In this document: piece by piece, positions 3,628-28,816 of the stretch | Position numbering within the stretch: position 1 is the first letter of the stretch | Layout of the letters: the number at the start of each line of letters is the position of its first letter | IMG/VR virus record: IMGVR_UViG_3300046323_000419 | Location: 1 to 64,000 of that record | Source: a virus | DNA: 64,000 nt | Direction: 5' to 3' (one strand) | Program-made: the position numbers and the translations under genes | Notes under the pieces: model-generated | The model's database searches: none | Told to the model about the DNA's origin: nothing | What the model saw: only the letters and a program-made list of their open reading frames with translations

Positions 3628-4076
3628 AACTCTTTAATAGTTACATTTAATACATTATTTGTTCTAGGATTTTTAAATTCGTGAATATGTTTCCAACCAT
3701 TTTTATCTAAAGTTTTCATTTGTGGTGTATTTGATTTTAAATCTGTACACATTAATAATCCGTATTCTAAATGTTTTGCAATATCAATTCTAAAGTTATT
3801 TAAAAGTGAATTGACACCTTTATCTCTGAATTTAATATTTACATATGTCCCTGTACTAATACATATTCCACAACAACCTACCATTTGCAAAAGAGTAAAT
3901 TGAGATATTAATTCGTTTTCTAAATTAACAACTTGAATTTGAAGACCTTTATAAGTATCTTTAACATATACTAAATCTCCTAATGTTAAAGTTTTATAAT
4001 TTCCATACACACCATATTGTATAATTACATCTTGATCTAATAATTCTTTTAACTGTTTTGTATATTTTTCTATCAT
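3624..4076 (-). CDS. GNAT-like acetyltransferase
   Basis: VNIKFRDKGVNSLL resembles the acetyl-CoA binding motif A; NTPQMKTLDKNGWK resembles motif B. Confidence 0.6.
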   Translation of the reverse strand: MIEKYTKQLKELLDQDVIIQYGVYGNYKTLTLGDLVYVKDTYKGLQIQVVNLENELISQFTLLQMVGCCGICISTGTYVNIKFRDKGVNSLLNNFRIDIAKHLEYGLLMCTDLKSNTPQMKTLDKNGWKHIHEFKNPRTNNVLNVTIKEL

Positions 4077-4609
4077 ATTTGTTTTATTTCAGATGTAACT
4101 TTTATTTCATTATCTAAATTTTTTAATTCAATGTATCTATAATATTCACCATATTCACAATCATAATTTAAAAATTCAATTAATTCATCAGGATTTTTAG
4201 ATTTTAAAAAATTAATTAAATTACTAACTTTAAGATGTTTAGATTTAAACTCTTTTTGTAATTTATTAAACTCTTCAATACAATTTTCTTTTTTACAGTA
4301 GAAATATTTAGCGTCTTCTATTAAAATTTCTTTATTTGTTTGTTTTTGATATGCTCTATATTTCCCGTTCATATCTACTCTATGAGATTCTTTTTCTACA
4401 AATAATCCTTGTAAATAATCACATAATAATATAGTTGTTTCAGAAGCTTCTGTTGAAATTCCGTTTATTGCAAGTAATCCACAAAACATATTATTTCGAG
4501 TTTTAGCTTTTTTTAAATCTATTGTATGAATATTTGTTTCATCAACATAATATACTATAGCTTGCTCTAATATATCATAATTGTCTTTTGTTAAAAATGT
4601 ATTTTTCAT
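4073..4609 (-). CDS. hypothetical protein
   Basis: 178 aa ORF coupled to the downstream gene by an ATGA overlap. Confidence 0.7.
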   Translation of the reverse strand: MKNTFLTKDNYDILEQAIVYYVDETNIHTIDLKKAKTRNNMFCGLLAINGISTEASETTILLCDYLQGLFVEKESHRVDMNGKYRAYQKQTNKEILIEDAKYFYCKKENCIEEFNKLQKEFKSKHLKVSNLINFLKSKNPDELIEFLNYDCEYGEYYRYIELKNLDNEIKVTSEIKQI

Positions 4610-5841: not shown

Positions 5842-5946
5842 AGGTTGAGGCAGGGTTTGAACCTGCACGAGAATATTTTATTGTATAGTTTATTATCCCA
5901 GCGAACCACTATACCTCACCGCGTCTACCAATTCCGCCACTCAACC
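5842..5946 (-). tRNA. atypical tRNA-like element (Leu-type D arm, anticodon arm replaced by an insertion)
   Basis: Acceptor GGTTGAG/CTCAACC, D arm GCGGAATTGGTAGACGC, T arm GCAGG-TTCAAAC-CCTGC; central part contains a GTATAGT/ACTATAC stem and no 7-nt anticodon loop. Confidence 0.7.
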
Positions 5947-13959: not shown

Positions 13960-15975
13960 TTATTTAAGTTTATCAATAATACTGTAACATTCTTTAATGT
14001 AATAATCATAATTTAAATCGTATTCATATTTTTCATACTTGTTAAATAAAGTACATTTATAACCAGACTCTAAATTTTCATCTCTATTTTCAGCATCAAC
14101 TTTAACATCTTCAATAATATCAAATATATTTAATTGATTTGGATCAAATTTTAATTTATATTTATCAGTTTCAGTTAAGAAATGTTTTTCTAATGGTGGT
14201 AATTTTTTAATTAATTCAACACCTACATTAGATACATAATATCTATTCATTTTAGATAAAGGTTCTTCAATTAAATCATAACCTTTCCAATAACGTTGAA
14301 CTAATTCATTTTTACCTTTCATTTTAGCACCTAAACAGAAATCATATATTCCATAATTTTTTGCAAAAGAATAATCATCATATAATTTATCAGAATTATT
14401 TAAAGTATAAGCATAATTTTGTAAATGATTATAAATAGTTGATTCTATAGATTCATTATTTATAAAATAATTAGCTAATGCAATTGGTACAATTCTTTTA
14501 GAATGATTTTTATGATAATCTCTATCAATTTCAAAACAACCTTTAAATTTAATATTATTATCTGAAATAATATTGATATAATTATTAACGTCTCTTATTA
14601 TAATTTTTTCACAAGTTTGAATTTCTAAAGGAATATTAACTACTTTTTCAATTTCATTACAAGCTTTAATTAAACTATCATAATCAGATTTATGAATTCT
14701 ATACATAGCACCATCAGTATTTTCAAAAATAATAGTTGGTTCTATTTTACAATATTCAAAAACTCGTTCTGTTAATAAAGTTAATATCAATTGTCCATTA
14801 ATACAAATTGCTAATTGCCATTTTGGATCATATAAAAATGCATATTTATCTTTAGATAAACCGTAACTACCATTAAGAATAATTTTTAATACATAATTAC
14901 GAGGATCTTTCTTATCATAAAGTTTTCTATCTTTATAAAATCCCTCATATATACTACTAAAAATTGGTTCTGGAATATGTTCTGGATGTAATTTATTTCT
15001 AAATGAAATATGTGGATAAAATGAAGCATAGTCCACGTCGCATAAAATATAATCATCATCTGTTTCATATACACCAGCTTTACCAAATGAATGTAATCCA
15101 CCTTCAGCATATTCTCTTACAACATTTTTATAAGTTCTACTAAAAGATATTGAATACTTTTTAGATTGTTCAGCATTCATATTAGATGTATCAATCCATT
15201 TATATGAATTAAACTTTTCTAATACTTCTTGATTTAATGGATCATTAAACTTTAAATAATCAAATATTATATCCTTAATGTTTATTTCAGAACGTTCTGT
15301 TCTTAATTTAGAAAGAGTTTTAGTATCTATTTTCATTTCTTTTGATAAATATTTACCAAAGATTTCTTTAGACATTTTGATTTCAGAAGCATTTATTAAA
15401 TTTATACATTCTAATTGAGTATAAAACTTTCTAATTTCAATATGTTTAGAACTAAGATTATAAAATTTCTCAGTGGCTTCAATATCATTTTTGCAGTAAC
15501 TAATAATTTCATCCATTTGACCAAATGTTAATATTGTACCAGGTTTATATGGTAAATCTTCAACATTAGGTAATCTCATAGCAAATTCAAGCCATTTAAG
15601 CGAAGTACTTTTATTTTTATTATCATAGTGCCAAATACGATACAAATCTAATTGAGGTATCTTAATTTGATTATCCCAAATAGCTGAATATTTAGTGTTG
15701 ATAATAGTTTCAACTTCTTTATAAATTTCTTGAGCAGTTAAAAGTTTATTTGATTTTAATATAGTATTATGCAATACTGGATAATCAAAATTAAGATTAT
15801 TAAAACCTATTAAACCTTTAACTTGTTCATTAAGAAACTTTTTTAAATTGATTTGATCAGATTTTCTATCACTTATTTCAAAATAATGATAATTATTTGT
15901 AATAATACATTTAAATACTGCTAGAAAGAAATTGGGATAGGTTTCTAAATCCCAAATAAATAATTGTTTATTCAT
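13960..15975 (-). CDS. DNA polymerase family B with 3'-5' exonuclease
   Basis: WDLET (ExoI), GFNNLNFD (ExoII), YCKND (ExoIII), DYASFYP (motif A), KIILNGSYG (motif B), ENTDG (motif C). Confidence 0.93.
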   Translation of the reverse strand: MNKQLFIWDLETYPNFFLAVFKCIITNNYHYFEISDRKSDQINLKKFLNEQVKGLIGFNNLNFDYPVLHNTILKSNKLLTAQEIYKEVETIINTKYSAIWDNQIKIPQLDLYRIWHYDNKNKSTSLKWLEFAMRLPNVEDLPYKPGTILTFGQMDEIISYCKNDIEATEKFYNLSSKHIEIRKFYTQLECINLINASEIKMSKEIFGKYLSKEMKIDTKTLSKLRTERSEINIKDIIFDYLKFNDPLNQEVLEKFNSYKWIDTSNMNAEQSKKYSISFSRTYKNVVREYAEGGLHSFGKAGVYETDDDYILCDVDYASFYPHISFRNKLHPEHIPEPIFSSIYEGFYKDRKLYDKKDPRNYVLKIILNGSYGLSKDKYAFLYDPKWQLAICINGQLILTLLTERVFEYCKIEPTIIFENTDGAMYRIHKSDYDSLIKACNEIEKVVNIPLEIQTCEKIIIRDVNNYINIISDNNIKFKGCFEIDRDYHKNHSKRIVPIALANYFINNESIESTIYNHLQNYAYTLNNSDKLYDDYSFAKNYGIYDFCLGAKMKGKNELVQRYWKGYDLIEEPLSKMNRYYVSNVGVELIKKLPPLEKHFLTETDKYKLKFDPNQLNIFDIIEDVKVDAENRDENLESGYKCTLFNKYEKYEYDLNYDYYIKECYSIIDKLK

Positions 15976-19507: not shown

Positions 19508-19799
19508 AATTTTAATATTTAGTTGTTTTTAATTTATTTAATTTAATTTTTAATAATAAATAGGTTATATTCGAATACAAATATAATTAAATTTCTACGG
19601 CAGTATAGTCAAATACCTATTTTAATTTTATAAAATAACATTGTAGGTTGTCAATCTACATTTCCCCAATTATAAGTTTTATTCTTATATAAACTGAAAT
19701 GAACTCAAATTTACTGCTTATAATTGTTACTCCTACTAGAAAGGGTGCTAGACATTTGCACTAAATGTTATTTATTCACAGTTTACACGGACTGTATTG

Positions 19800-20206
19800 T
19801 GGAGATGGGCGGATTCGAACCGCCGTGTTCCTTGCATTCGTTATATAATTTTATACAGCTTATTGTAAAATTTAATCTTTAATGTCCTTTAAAAACTACT
19901 AAATGTGGACTTTTAATTTACTTCCTATTACTTTATGAACTGGTAAATTAACAGAATCCTCATAACCGTCGATAGGATACGTGTGATTGTATTACTACAA
20001 TCGTTTTAAACTATGCTGCCAATTCTAATTCATTATAAATGATATCATTAGATTTAACTTTAGTTCCACCGTTTAAGATGTTATGAACTACTTGCATATT
20101 TGCTGATACTTGATCTTTGCCGTTTAAAAATATTCACCTTAGTTTACAGTTATCTCTCTGGCTGAATTATATAATTATTAACAATGAGTCAATTCCAGTC
20201 ATCCCC
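19800..20206 (-). ncRNA. ssrA: tmRNA
   Basis: 5' GGGGATGACTGGAATTGAC; 3' GGCGG-TTCGAAT-CCGCC CATCTCC A; G3-U wobble (Ala identity); internal frame ending ...YNELELAA-stop (TAG at 20011-20013). Confidence 0.93.
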
Positions 20207-20645
20207 TTATTTATTTTATTATAAAAACCACTAGAACTAATTATTAATTCCAGTGGTTAGTTTTGTAGCAAACTAAAACTTATTATATGCTACTCTTCTT
20301 CAAAGACTTTTGTCTATGTCAGTGTTTATTTTGTTTTAATTTGAATATTTAATATATAATATTATTGATGTCATAATAATAATGACACAAAATATTGTTG
20401 TACTAAATATTAAATTAGGATGTTTAGAATGATTTTGTGAAAGAATATATCTTTCTATTTTATTTCTATTCATATTCTTTTAATAGATTTTGTGTTATTA
20501 AAAATGATAATGTTGATATTAATCCCCCACCAAAACAGTAGAAAAATATGTCTTGAGTATAAGTTGTAAATATTATATATAAACCTAATAATAGAAATAA
20601 TATCCCCATAATTCCAAATGCTAATGATAATGTTTTCATAGTTTG

Positions 20646-27355: not shown

Positions 27356-28816
27356 ATGGAAGAATTACACTTTGGAAAAGAAGCAAGAGATAAAATTATA
27401 GAAGGGATTAATGATTTAAATAAAGCAGTTAGTTCAACAATGGGGCCAAATGGAGCTACTGTTATAATACCTAATAAAAATAAATATGGTGAATATATTA
27501 TAACTAAAGATGGTGTTTCTGTTGCAGAACAAATTATATTTAAAGATCCATTAAAAAATATTGGTGCAAACTTAATTAAACAGGTTGCTAGAAAGACTGT
27601 AGAAGATGCTGGAGATGGTACAACTACTAGTATAGTATTAGCTACAGCATTTGTTAACAATCTAAAAGATTTCAAATCTATAGATATTAACAAAGCTTTT
27701 AATGAAATTATACCAAAAGTCATTGAACAATTAAAACTTAATTCACGAGAATTAAAACATGAAGATATTAAACACGTTGCTAGCATATCTGCTAATAATG
27801 ATTTACAGATTGGTGAACTTATTCAACAAGCTTATAACCATTCTGATATAGTTAAAATTGAAGAGAGTTCTAATATAGAAGATATATTAGATACACTACC
27901 AGGAATGTCACTTCCAGTAAGTTACTTTTCTAAACATTTTATTACAAACCAATCTAAAGGAACTTGCGAATTTACAAATGTTAATACTTTAGTTATTGAT
28001 AGTAAGTTAGAAAAGTTAGAAAACTTTAGATCTATACTAGAATTAACACAGCAACCTAATAGTTCATTATTAATAATTGTTGAGGATATTCACGAACAAG
28101 CTCTTAGAAAGCTTGAAACTTTTGTTCTATCACAATCATTACCGATATGTGTTATTAAGTCACCAGGCTTCTCTAAACACCGTAAAGATTTATTACAAGA
28201 CTTATGTTACTTTACAGGAAGTACATTAATTACAGATATATCTAAATTTTATAATACAGATGTTCTTGGTAAATTACAATCTTGTAAAATATCTAAAAAT
28301 AATAGTATATTAGTTAAAGATGATTCTATAGATGTTTCTGATAAATTAGAAAACCTAATTGAATTATCTAAAAATATAGAATTAGCTGAACACGATAAAG
28401 ATTTAATTAAACAACGTATTGAATACCTTAAAGGTAAAATATCTATTATTAAAGTTGGTGGTAAATCAGAACTAGAAATGAAAGAACGTTTTGATAGATA
28501 TGATGATGCTGTTAAAGCGGTGGCTTGTGCATTAGAAGAAGGGATTGTTGAAGGTGGTGGTATTGCATTAGCTAATATAGCTTTAAATATAACAGATACA
28601 AAAGATATAATTTTTAAAATAACAGATGCTTTATGTTCTCCAAATAATACAATTATAAATAATGGTTCTGAAATAAATAATAATAATATGTTTGAACAGA
28701 ATATTATAGACCCATTAAAAGTAACTAGATGTGCATTAGAAAATGCAGTATCAGTTGCTAAAGTTATACTAAGCACCGAAGCTGTAGTTTTAAATTCTGA
28801 AGAATGGATGAAATAA
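27356..28816 (+). CDS. groEL: chaperonin GroEL (Cpn60)
   Basis: TMGPNG, ITKDGVSVA, AGDGTTT, IKVGG, EEGIVEGGG, IIDPLKVTRCALENAVSVA. Confidence 0.95.
   Translation: MEELHFGKEARDKIIEGINDLNKAVSSTMGPNGATVIIPNKNKYGEYIITKDGVSVAEQIIFKDPLKNIGANLIKQVARKTVEDAGDGTTTSIVLATAFVNNLKDFKSIDINKAFNEIIPKVIEQLKLNSRELKHEDIKHVASISANNDLQIGELIQQAYNHSDIVKIEESSNIEDILDTLPGMSLPVSYFSKHFITNQSKGTCEFTNVNTLVIDSKLEKLENFRSILELTQQPNSSLLIIVEDIHEQALRKLETFVLSQSLPICVIKSPGFSKHRKDLLQDLCYFTGSTLITDISKFYNTDVLGKLQSCKISKNNSILVKDDSIDVSDKLENLIELSKNIELAEHDKDLIKQRIEYLKGKISIIKVGGKSELEMKERFDRYDDAVKAVACALEEGIVEGGGIALANIALNITDTKDIIFKITDALCSPNNTIINNGSEINNNNMFEQNIIDPLKVTRCALENAVSVAKVILSTEAVVLNSEEWMK

Follow-up and report, generated by a model that had tools for sequence, protein, structure and literature searches.

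A crAss-like flavobacterial phage with a one-piece tmRNA gene and a putative 36-residue tag containing a conserved peptide core

About 2.3% of phage genomes carry a tmRNA gene (PMC9004378), and phage tmRNAs have been described for the mycobacteriophage Bxz1 group, for Bacillus phage G and, in two-piece form, for marine myophages (PMC4131195, PMC9004378). The reason why phages possess such genes is unsettled, and the published ideas are generic, namely that hijacked ribosomes are kept running and that host proteins are recycled (PMC9004378). The peptide tag of a tmRNA is most commonly 10 aa long (PMC11915505), and its frame is set by sequences upstream of the resume codon (PMC2481249). Here, we ask what is encoded by a tmRNA-like locus within 64,000 nt of viral DNA (positions 1 to 64,000 of the IMG/VR record IMGVR_UViG_3300046323_000419; from here: the window) and which tag it specifies. 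A preliminary description of this DNA had proposed a phage-encoded tmRNA with a complete tRNA-Ala-like domain, and a tag of either 36 or 19 aa depending on which of two candidate resume sites is used.

A complete one-piece tmRNA gene of 407 nt was found on the minus strand at 19800–20206 of the window, within a 100-kb crAss-like phage genome. The match to the Rfam model RF00023 spans the full model (positions 1–374) at 19797–20206, minus strand, with 32.1 bits and E-values of 5e-11 in a 1-kb search and 1.2e-12 in the whole 100-kb genome, which is better than chance. This hit was taken in E-value mode; an Rfam scan at the gathering threshold returned no match at the tmRNA locus because 32.1 bits fall below the gathering score of 47. 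ARAGORN called no gene in the window at default settings and recovered a 408-nt tmRNA at the locus with the setting -ps90. The check by ARAGORN and Rfam that had been suggested was thus negative at defaults and positive with permissive settings. The fold z-score of the tmRNA, calculated against dinucleotide shuffles, was −2.67. The following elements were located in and next to the gene:

19800–20206, minus strand: one-piece tmRNA gene, with G1 at 20206 and the discriminator A at 19800
19799–19797, minus strand: trailer CAA, no CCA, from reading the sequence
20200–20206, minus strand: 5′ strand of the acceptor stem, GGGGATG, with G3 at 20204
19801–19807, minus strand: 3′ strand of the acceptor stem, CATCTCC, with U70 at 19803 opposite G3
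19808–19824, minus strand: T-arm GGCGG-TTCGAAT-CCGCC, in which 5/5 pairs covary among 70 sequences and 0 are broken
20160–20187, minus strand: 5′ strand of helix 2, pairing with 19829–19861, with compensatory changes in most pairs according to RNAalifold
19829–19861, minus strand: 3′ strand of helix 2 with the conserved AAGCTGTA (RNAalifold, 70 family members)
20133–20159, minus strand: PK1 region AGAGAGATAACTG-TAAA-CTAAGGTGAA, containing the hairpin CAG-AGAGAUAA-CUG
19985–20002, minus strand: perfect 7-bp hairpin GATTGTA-GTAA-TACAATC, helix-5-like, 8 nt past the stop codon of the tag frame
20226–20258, minus strand: terminator-like hairpin and T-run of the upstream gene, ending 20 nt before G1 of the tmRNA

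With the acceptor stem, the G3:U70 pair, the T-arm and the discriminator A all readable, and with a full-length RF00023 alignment inside a phage genome, both the phage-encoded tmRNA and its complete tRNA-Ala-like domain were confirmed.

The parent IMG/VR record has 100,363 bp and is rated complete by CheckV. Its phage genes include those for a DNA polymerase (13960–15975, minus strand), a primase, a helicase, a large terminase, a portal and a major capsid protein, and the stretch from the DNA polymerase to the tmRNA has the same gene order as in the Crassvirales member Cellulophaga phage phi14:2. Neither an integrase nor ClpP was found in the phage genome, and SmpB, previously noted as missing from the window, is also missing from the remainder of the 100-kb genome. 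Gene content and gene order identify this genome as that of a lytic, crAss-like flavobacterial phage. Since the phage lacks SmpB, its tmRNA must rely on host partners. PHROGs and Pfam gave no informative match for the six ORFs nearest the tmRNA, and a promoter search on the minus strand just upstream of it found no TAnnTTTG element and sigma-70-like matches only at chance level. A host-gene remnant left at an attachment site was considered as well and rejected: the gene is complete, an integrase is missing, and its PK1 motif has a single match among the prokaryotic species genomes described below.

A blastn search matched 35 phage records, all of them Cellulophaga phages (phi14:2, Calle_1-3) or FpV4-like phages of Flavobacterium psychrophilum; the matches, at 75–79% identity, were confined to the 5′ 115 nt, while the 3′ domains differ. 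With RF00023, Calle_1 (86.6 bits) and FpV4 (58.2 bits) pass the gathering score and phi14:2 (46.0 bits) falls just short of 47. The loci of the window, phi14:2, Calle_1 and FpV4 have in common the sequence AGAGAGATAACTG...CTAAGGTGAA followed by TTTAAAC/T GGN. The exact PK1 motif AGAGAGATAACTG-N(2-12)-CTAAGGTGAA was used as the query of a family scan, so that its invariance within the family set is by construction. Viral contigs of IMG/VR that carry it number at least 119, and a set of one-per-species genomes from 185,579 prokaryotic species gave one match. This sole match (L124, JBIPLT010000239.1) comes from a Flavobacteriales MAG and lies on a contig of 4.9 kb; the phage-like tmRNA on that contig is the only one over the cut-off in the MAG, and the contig is probably phage DNA that was binned into the MAG. 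The name of L124 and that of the viral contig L005 carry the same metagenome number, 3300034064. By this distribution, the lineage is restricted to phages, where its carriers span at least three unrelated taxa. When the ORFs within about 3.5–4 kb of about 120 loci were clustered in search of a conserved partner gene, no cluster comprised more than 29 loci and none included the window. A tblastn search with the 36-aa tag against phages returned phi14:2 only, at E=10, the query being too short.

RNAalifold predicted 44 pairs from 70 family sequences, with compensatory changes in 29/44; positions 4–6 of the acceptor stem covary (GC/CG/AU/UA). All full-length family members (90/90) have G3:U70 and the discriminator A, and 0/90 encode CCA. 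The acceptor stems differ among relatives with near-identical flanks and tag regions, GGGGATG in the window being replaced by GGGGTCG, GGGCTCG, GGGGGTG or GGGGACG in a comparison with L115, L030, L017 and L022; L115, L030 and L022 were confirmed to carry a 3′ strand that compensates for the change, the 3′ end of L017 being outside the fetched locus. Turnover at positions 4–6 is fast yet constrained, with G3:U70 untouched. The PK1 hairpin has an optional fourth closing pair, which is Watson-Crick in 20/20 variants having one (A:U, C:G, G:C, U:A). For a second PK1 stem, pairing of the AGAGAUAA loop with the U-rich tract and of TTCAGCC with GGTGAA were tried, and neither was conserved across the alignment. 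The sequence AGGTGA inside the invariant 3′ element of PK1, CTAAGGTGAA (20133–20142, minus strand), could base-pair with six nucleotides of the anti-Shine-Dalgarno sequence of the 16S rRNA and sits 12 nt before the resume codon, where host tmRNAs have nothing comparable; this complementarity could be due to chance.

The 3′ half varies within the family, and that of the window aligns poorly, with low posterior probability in the Rfam alignment. In its PK2-PK4 region only local hairpins were seen. The GTGGTGGA box of most relatives is absent, and the GTCC...GGAC 3′ hairpin present in the window is common to one subfamily. The sequence of the hairpin at 19985–20002 is specific to the window, the closest relatives carrying a different sequence there (GATTTGGTAAATTAGAATTCGCG...), which suggests a local replacement of the helix 5/PK2 region.

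How the phage gene relates to the tmRNAs of its hosts was judged from 41 Flavobacteriales genomes, in which the host tmRNAs score 118–181 bits with RF00023 and encode tags of 9–10 aa, mostly GENNYALAA. For 30 Flavobacteriales host tmRNAs, the resume codons called by ARAGORN lie in the context ttTAAAT/C-GGC GAA AAC, of the type TTTAAAY-GGN. The phage tmRNA resembles them in its tRNA-Ala-like domain with G3:U70 and discriminator A, in the long helix 2, in the TTTAAAY-GGN context, in a tag that opens with G or D and ends with a hydrophobic residue and A-A, and in the first 20 nt of the window gene, which are up to 80% identical. It differs in tag length (36 versus 9–10 aa), in a conserved, predicted-helical tag core that is missing from host tags, in GC content (31% versus 45%), in its Rfam score (32 versus 118–181 bits) and in its PK1 sequence, which is invariant among the phages and found only once in the species genomes; moreover, it sits in a lytic phage without SmpB. 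The earlier statement that CCA must be added is supported by a gene reading A-CAA, and the need for host SmpB by the lack of a phage SmpB. The non-encoded CCA is no peculiarity of this phage, as it might have seemed: most of the 30 host genes end in ...CTCCAC followed by a base other than C, and 1/30 encodes the full CCA. Because host genes mostly lack an encoded CCA, the ACAA end is ordinary and needs no special explanation.

The central question concerns the tag, for which three features of the window have to be considered:

20011–20121, minus strand: tag reading frame, with the resume codon GGC at 20121–20119, 36 codons and the stop codon TAG at 20013–20011
20074–20112, minus strand: conserved tag core QVSANMQVVHNIL, tag residues 4–16, from the alignment of 80 tags and codon analysis
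20068–20076, minus strand: second TTAAAC-GGT, codons for Leu-Asn-Gly, in frame and 17 codons downstream of the first

Read from the sequence, the frame at 20121–20011 gives GKDQVSANMQVVHNILNGGTKVKSNDIIYNELELAA followed by a stop, as had been stated. It is an internal frame without a start codon; its product opens with GKDQVSANMQVV, contains the Q-x-x-A-N-M-x-x-V core and has a hydrophobic C-terminus, ...ELELAA, before the stop. TTAAAC-GGN does occur twice in frame, at 20127–20119, where the full context is TTTAAAC-GGC, and at 20076–20068.

Among the matches listed, comprising 119 tags, the resume codon is located 10–11 nt past the PK1 motif in 115; the first codon specifies G in 98 and D in 21, with K or N as the next residue, and the tags are 24–49 aa long with a mode of 35. 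In one large subfamily, an in-frame TAA located three codons before the G codon shuts the frame. The core Q-[VI]-x-A-N-M-x-x-V / A-N-M is found in 118/119 of these listed tags and is thus better conserved than the terminal AA, which about 90% of them possess. In an alignment of 80 distinct tags, Q4, A7, N8 and M9 are invariant, V12, A35 and A36 are conserved to at least 90%, and the core extends to the pattern Q-[VI]-x-A-N-M-x-x-V-[FHY]-[SN]-[IL]-[IL]. As the set had been collected by the PK1 motif and not by the tag, this conservation is an independent observation.

The codons of 83 distinct sequences were analyzed. Third positions of the core vary (Ala GCT/GCA/GCC/GCG, Asn AAC/AAT, Val GTA/GTT/GTG, Gln CAA/CAG), and the two-fold degenerate codons for Asn and Gln show the synonymous alternative only. 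The summed entropy at the three codon positions is 11.8, 8.6 and 17.1, respectively, and the ratio of synonymous to non-synonymous pairwise codon differences is 11186:19821 for the tag frame, compared with 3457:28213 and 1391:28886 for the two alternative frames. Since core codons vary at synonymous third positions only, the core is translated, and these substitutions show that purifying selection acts on the peptide. In the tag of the window the invariant Q occupies position 4, and translation therefore begins at or just before it, that is, at GGC 20121. AlphaFold2, run with the 80-tag alignment, predicted a helix at residues 2–17 with a pLDDT of about 80; the hydrophobic moment of the core is modestly above that of shuffles (p about 0.07). 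In the RNA, RNAalifold proposed a 4-bp pairing of GCUA, in the Ala-Asn codons of ANM, with UAGC near the tag end (alignment columns 148–151 with 233–236, window about 20103–20100 and 20020–20017). At one of these pairs the family has UA 34, UG 23, AU 4 and CG 3 times, and the window itself breaks that pair.

Which alternatives could account for this locus? The second TTAAAC-GGT would, if translation resumed there (20070), yield the 19-residue tag GGTKVKSNDIIYNELELAA; the hexamer before GGT is identical to that of the first site, and ARAGORN at relaxed threshold reports this tag, being alone in placing the start there. Its tag calls within the family are mutually inconsistent (19 aa for the window, 11 aa for phi14:2, 22 aa for Calle_1) and, in the relatives, fall on three different positions unrelated to this one, so they were given no weight. 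The second site is 62 nt away from PK1, whereas 30/30 host resume codons follow a TTTAAAY-type context like that of the first site. Relatives recode the Leu-Asn-Gly stretch as CTT AAT GGA, CTT AAC CTT or TTG AAC, a nucleotide context that is not conserved, and the core, which must be translated in view of its synonymous-only variation, lies upstream. From these comparisons the second site is best read as a coincidence of Leu-Asn-Gly codons and a 19-aa tag is extremely unlikely, so that of the two lengths proposed earlier only 36 aa stands. Nor did the resume codon map close to the stop and give an ordinary short tag, an outcome the preliminary description had allowed for; it was placed at 20121, with a tag of 36 residues. 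That the long frame is kept for reasons of RNA structure or spacing, the peptide being just a longer spacer before an ordinary AA degron, would fit the GCUA/UAGC pairing with its partial covariation and the retention of the C-terminal AA. However, the variation is three-periodic, the residues Q, A, N and M stay fixed even where their codons are two-fold degenerate, the core outdoes the terminal AA in the listed tags, and a helix of 4 bp is insufficient to explain 13 constrained codons; we consider this explanation very improbable.

A decoy RNA, with its frame unused, that titrates away SmpB of the host or stops trans-translation there would be compatible with a phage devoid of SmpB and with the degenerate 3′ domain in the window, and a phage tmRNA of this kind, the TLD-only molecule of mycobacteriophage DS6A, is reported to have an inhibitory effect (PMC4131195). 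Against this, 119 relatives among the matches listed keep the frame open, and its amino acids are subject to purifying selection, which requires translation, so there is hardly any room left for a decoy. Finally, the gene might be a decaying passenger copy without function in the window phage. Its Rfam score is the lowest among the relatives examined (32 versus 46–87 bits), ARAGORN fails at default, and the sequence past the stop codon is unique. Nevertheless, the acceptor stem, G3:U70, T-arm, helix 2, PK1 motif and resume context are intact, as are all invariant tag residues and the stop codon; the acceptor stems of near-syntenic relatives differ by compensatory pairs only, and the GTCC...GGAC variant of the 3′ hairpin is common to a subfamily. 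Decay is thus a highly unlikely account of the locus. We conclude, with a probability of roughly 0.8, that a lytic crAss-like phage infecting a member of the Flavobacteriaceae carries at this locus a functional tmRNA gene of the one-piece type, and we take its 36-residue tag, as supported by the family alignments, to be real.

For this functional tmRNA, the following course of events is proposed. The minus-strand transcript would be trimmed to release the tmRNA, its CCA end would be finished by a host enzyme, and host alanyl-tRNA synthetase would charge it with alanine via G3:U70 and the discriminator A. Together with host SmpB, the RNA would then enter stalled ribosomes, and translation would resume at GGC (20121), appending Ala plus 36 residues ending in ELELAA. 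In this way the phage may supply extra rescue capacity during infection. According to the preliminary description, it would perhaps also counter defences that cleave tRNA or mRNA, and its long tag may alter which protease or adaptor is engaged.

The tag itself looks like a host tag stretched from within: it has the G-K/N start and the ...LAA end with about 25 residues between them, which include a predicted amphipathic helix formed by the extended core. By analogy with work on E. coli, it is expected still to act as a degradation tag because of its host-like start and its end of a hydrophobic residue and A-A (the canonical LAA in the window). Since at least 119 phage contigs conserve a helix among its additional residues, it probably does more than mark proteins for destruction. 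A specific partner for the conserved core is plausible from its sequence conservation, and any such partner would more probably be a host factor that is itself conserved than a protein of the phage, because the carriers share no neighbour gene and belong to at least three unrelated taxa. The helix may serve to dock a host proteostasis factor that is distinct from, or acts besides, the protease that reads the C-terminal AA. Tentatively, and at less than even odds, we suggest that it docks a flavobacterial adaptor, another protease or a chaperone, and that the tmRNAs of crAss-like phages, Pervagoviridae and Fipvunavirus re-route, sequester or protect the products of stalled ribosomes, beyond boosting rescue of the host type.

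The nearest precedent is the 27-residue tmRNA tag of Mycoplasma, for which an adaptation to Lon instead of ClpXP was proposed (Gur and Sauer 2008, as cited in PMC8403727). According to that citation it is likewise unusually long, with extra residues thought to redirect protease recognition; it has no sequence similarity to the phage tag and is cellular, not viral, whereas the hosts of the window family keep a short tag. Other phage tmRNAs have in common with the present one that a phage-borne rescue RNA relies on host SmpB, but they belong to unrelated lineages, and no tag core conserved across families was found reported for them in the literature searched. Closest are the tmRNAs of Calle_1, phi14:2 and the FpV4-like phages, which agree with the window in their PK1 motif, in the resume context and in the ANM core, with tags of 30, 38 and 35 aa, respectively; that of phi14:2 has the syntenic position beside the DNA polymerase. 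Their tags end in MVA (Calle_1), VGV (phi14:2) and VAA (FpV4-like), in contrast to LAA in the window. A description of the conserved long tag was not found in the literature searched, in which papers on these flavobacterial phages only count the tmRNA gene.

The long-tag lineage offers a concrete handle on the unsettled question of why phages carry tmRNA genes, as it presents a peptide motif that is more strongly conserved than the canonical degron, absent from host tags and common to unrelated phages of one host group. If this motif binds a host factor, these viruses would have tailored what ribosome rescue yields and not its capacity alone, and a testable system would be at hand in two culturable pairs, Cellulophaga baltica with phi14:2 and F. 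psychrophilum with FpV4. Were the docking reading true, the tag would contain a functional, virus-specific peptide module that differs both from the known degron and from adaptor sites of the SspB type.

There is a practical side to these results, since ARAGORN and Rfam at default settings miss or mis-call long-tag tmRNA genes. Among the records of phi14:2, Calle and the FpV4-like phages, only the Calle locus is annotated as a tmRNA, as published for Cellulophaga phage Calle_1 (PMC8776804); those of phi14:2 and the FpV4-like phages hold what are probably spurious ORFs, or nothing, at the locus. In the phi14:2 record (KC821624.1, about 4031–4502), four short ORFs annotated as 'hypothetical protein', gp011-gp014, cover the unannotated tmRNA and are probably spurious. 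The tmRNA gene of Flavobacterium phage FpV4 is likewise unannotated in the public record.

Two further elements of the genome were recorded. At 5842–5946 of the window, minus strand, lies a 105-nt tRNA-like element that matches RF00005 with 36.6 bits, over the cut-off, and receives no ARAGORN call; it is the only tRNA-type match in the 100-kb genome. At 27356–28816, plus strand, just upstream of the terminase, a GroEL-like chaperonin is encoded (PF00118, 143.5 bits; phrog_5725). The chaperonin and the tmRNA together suggest that this phage brings its own parts for protein quality control.
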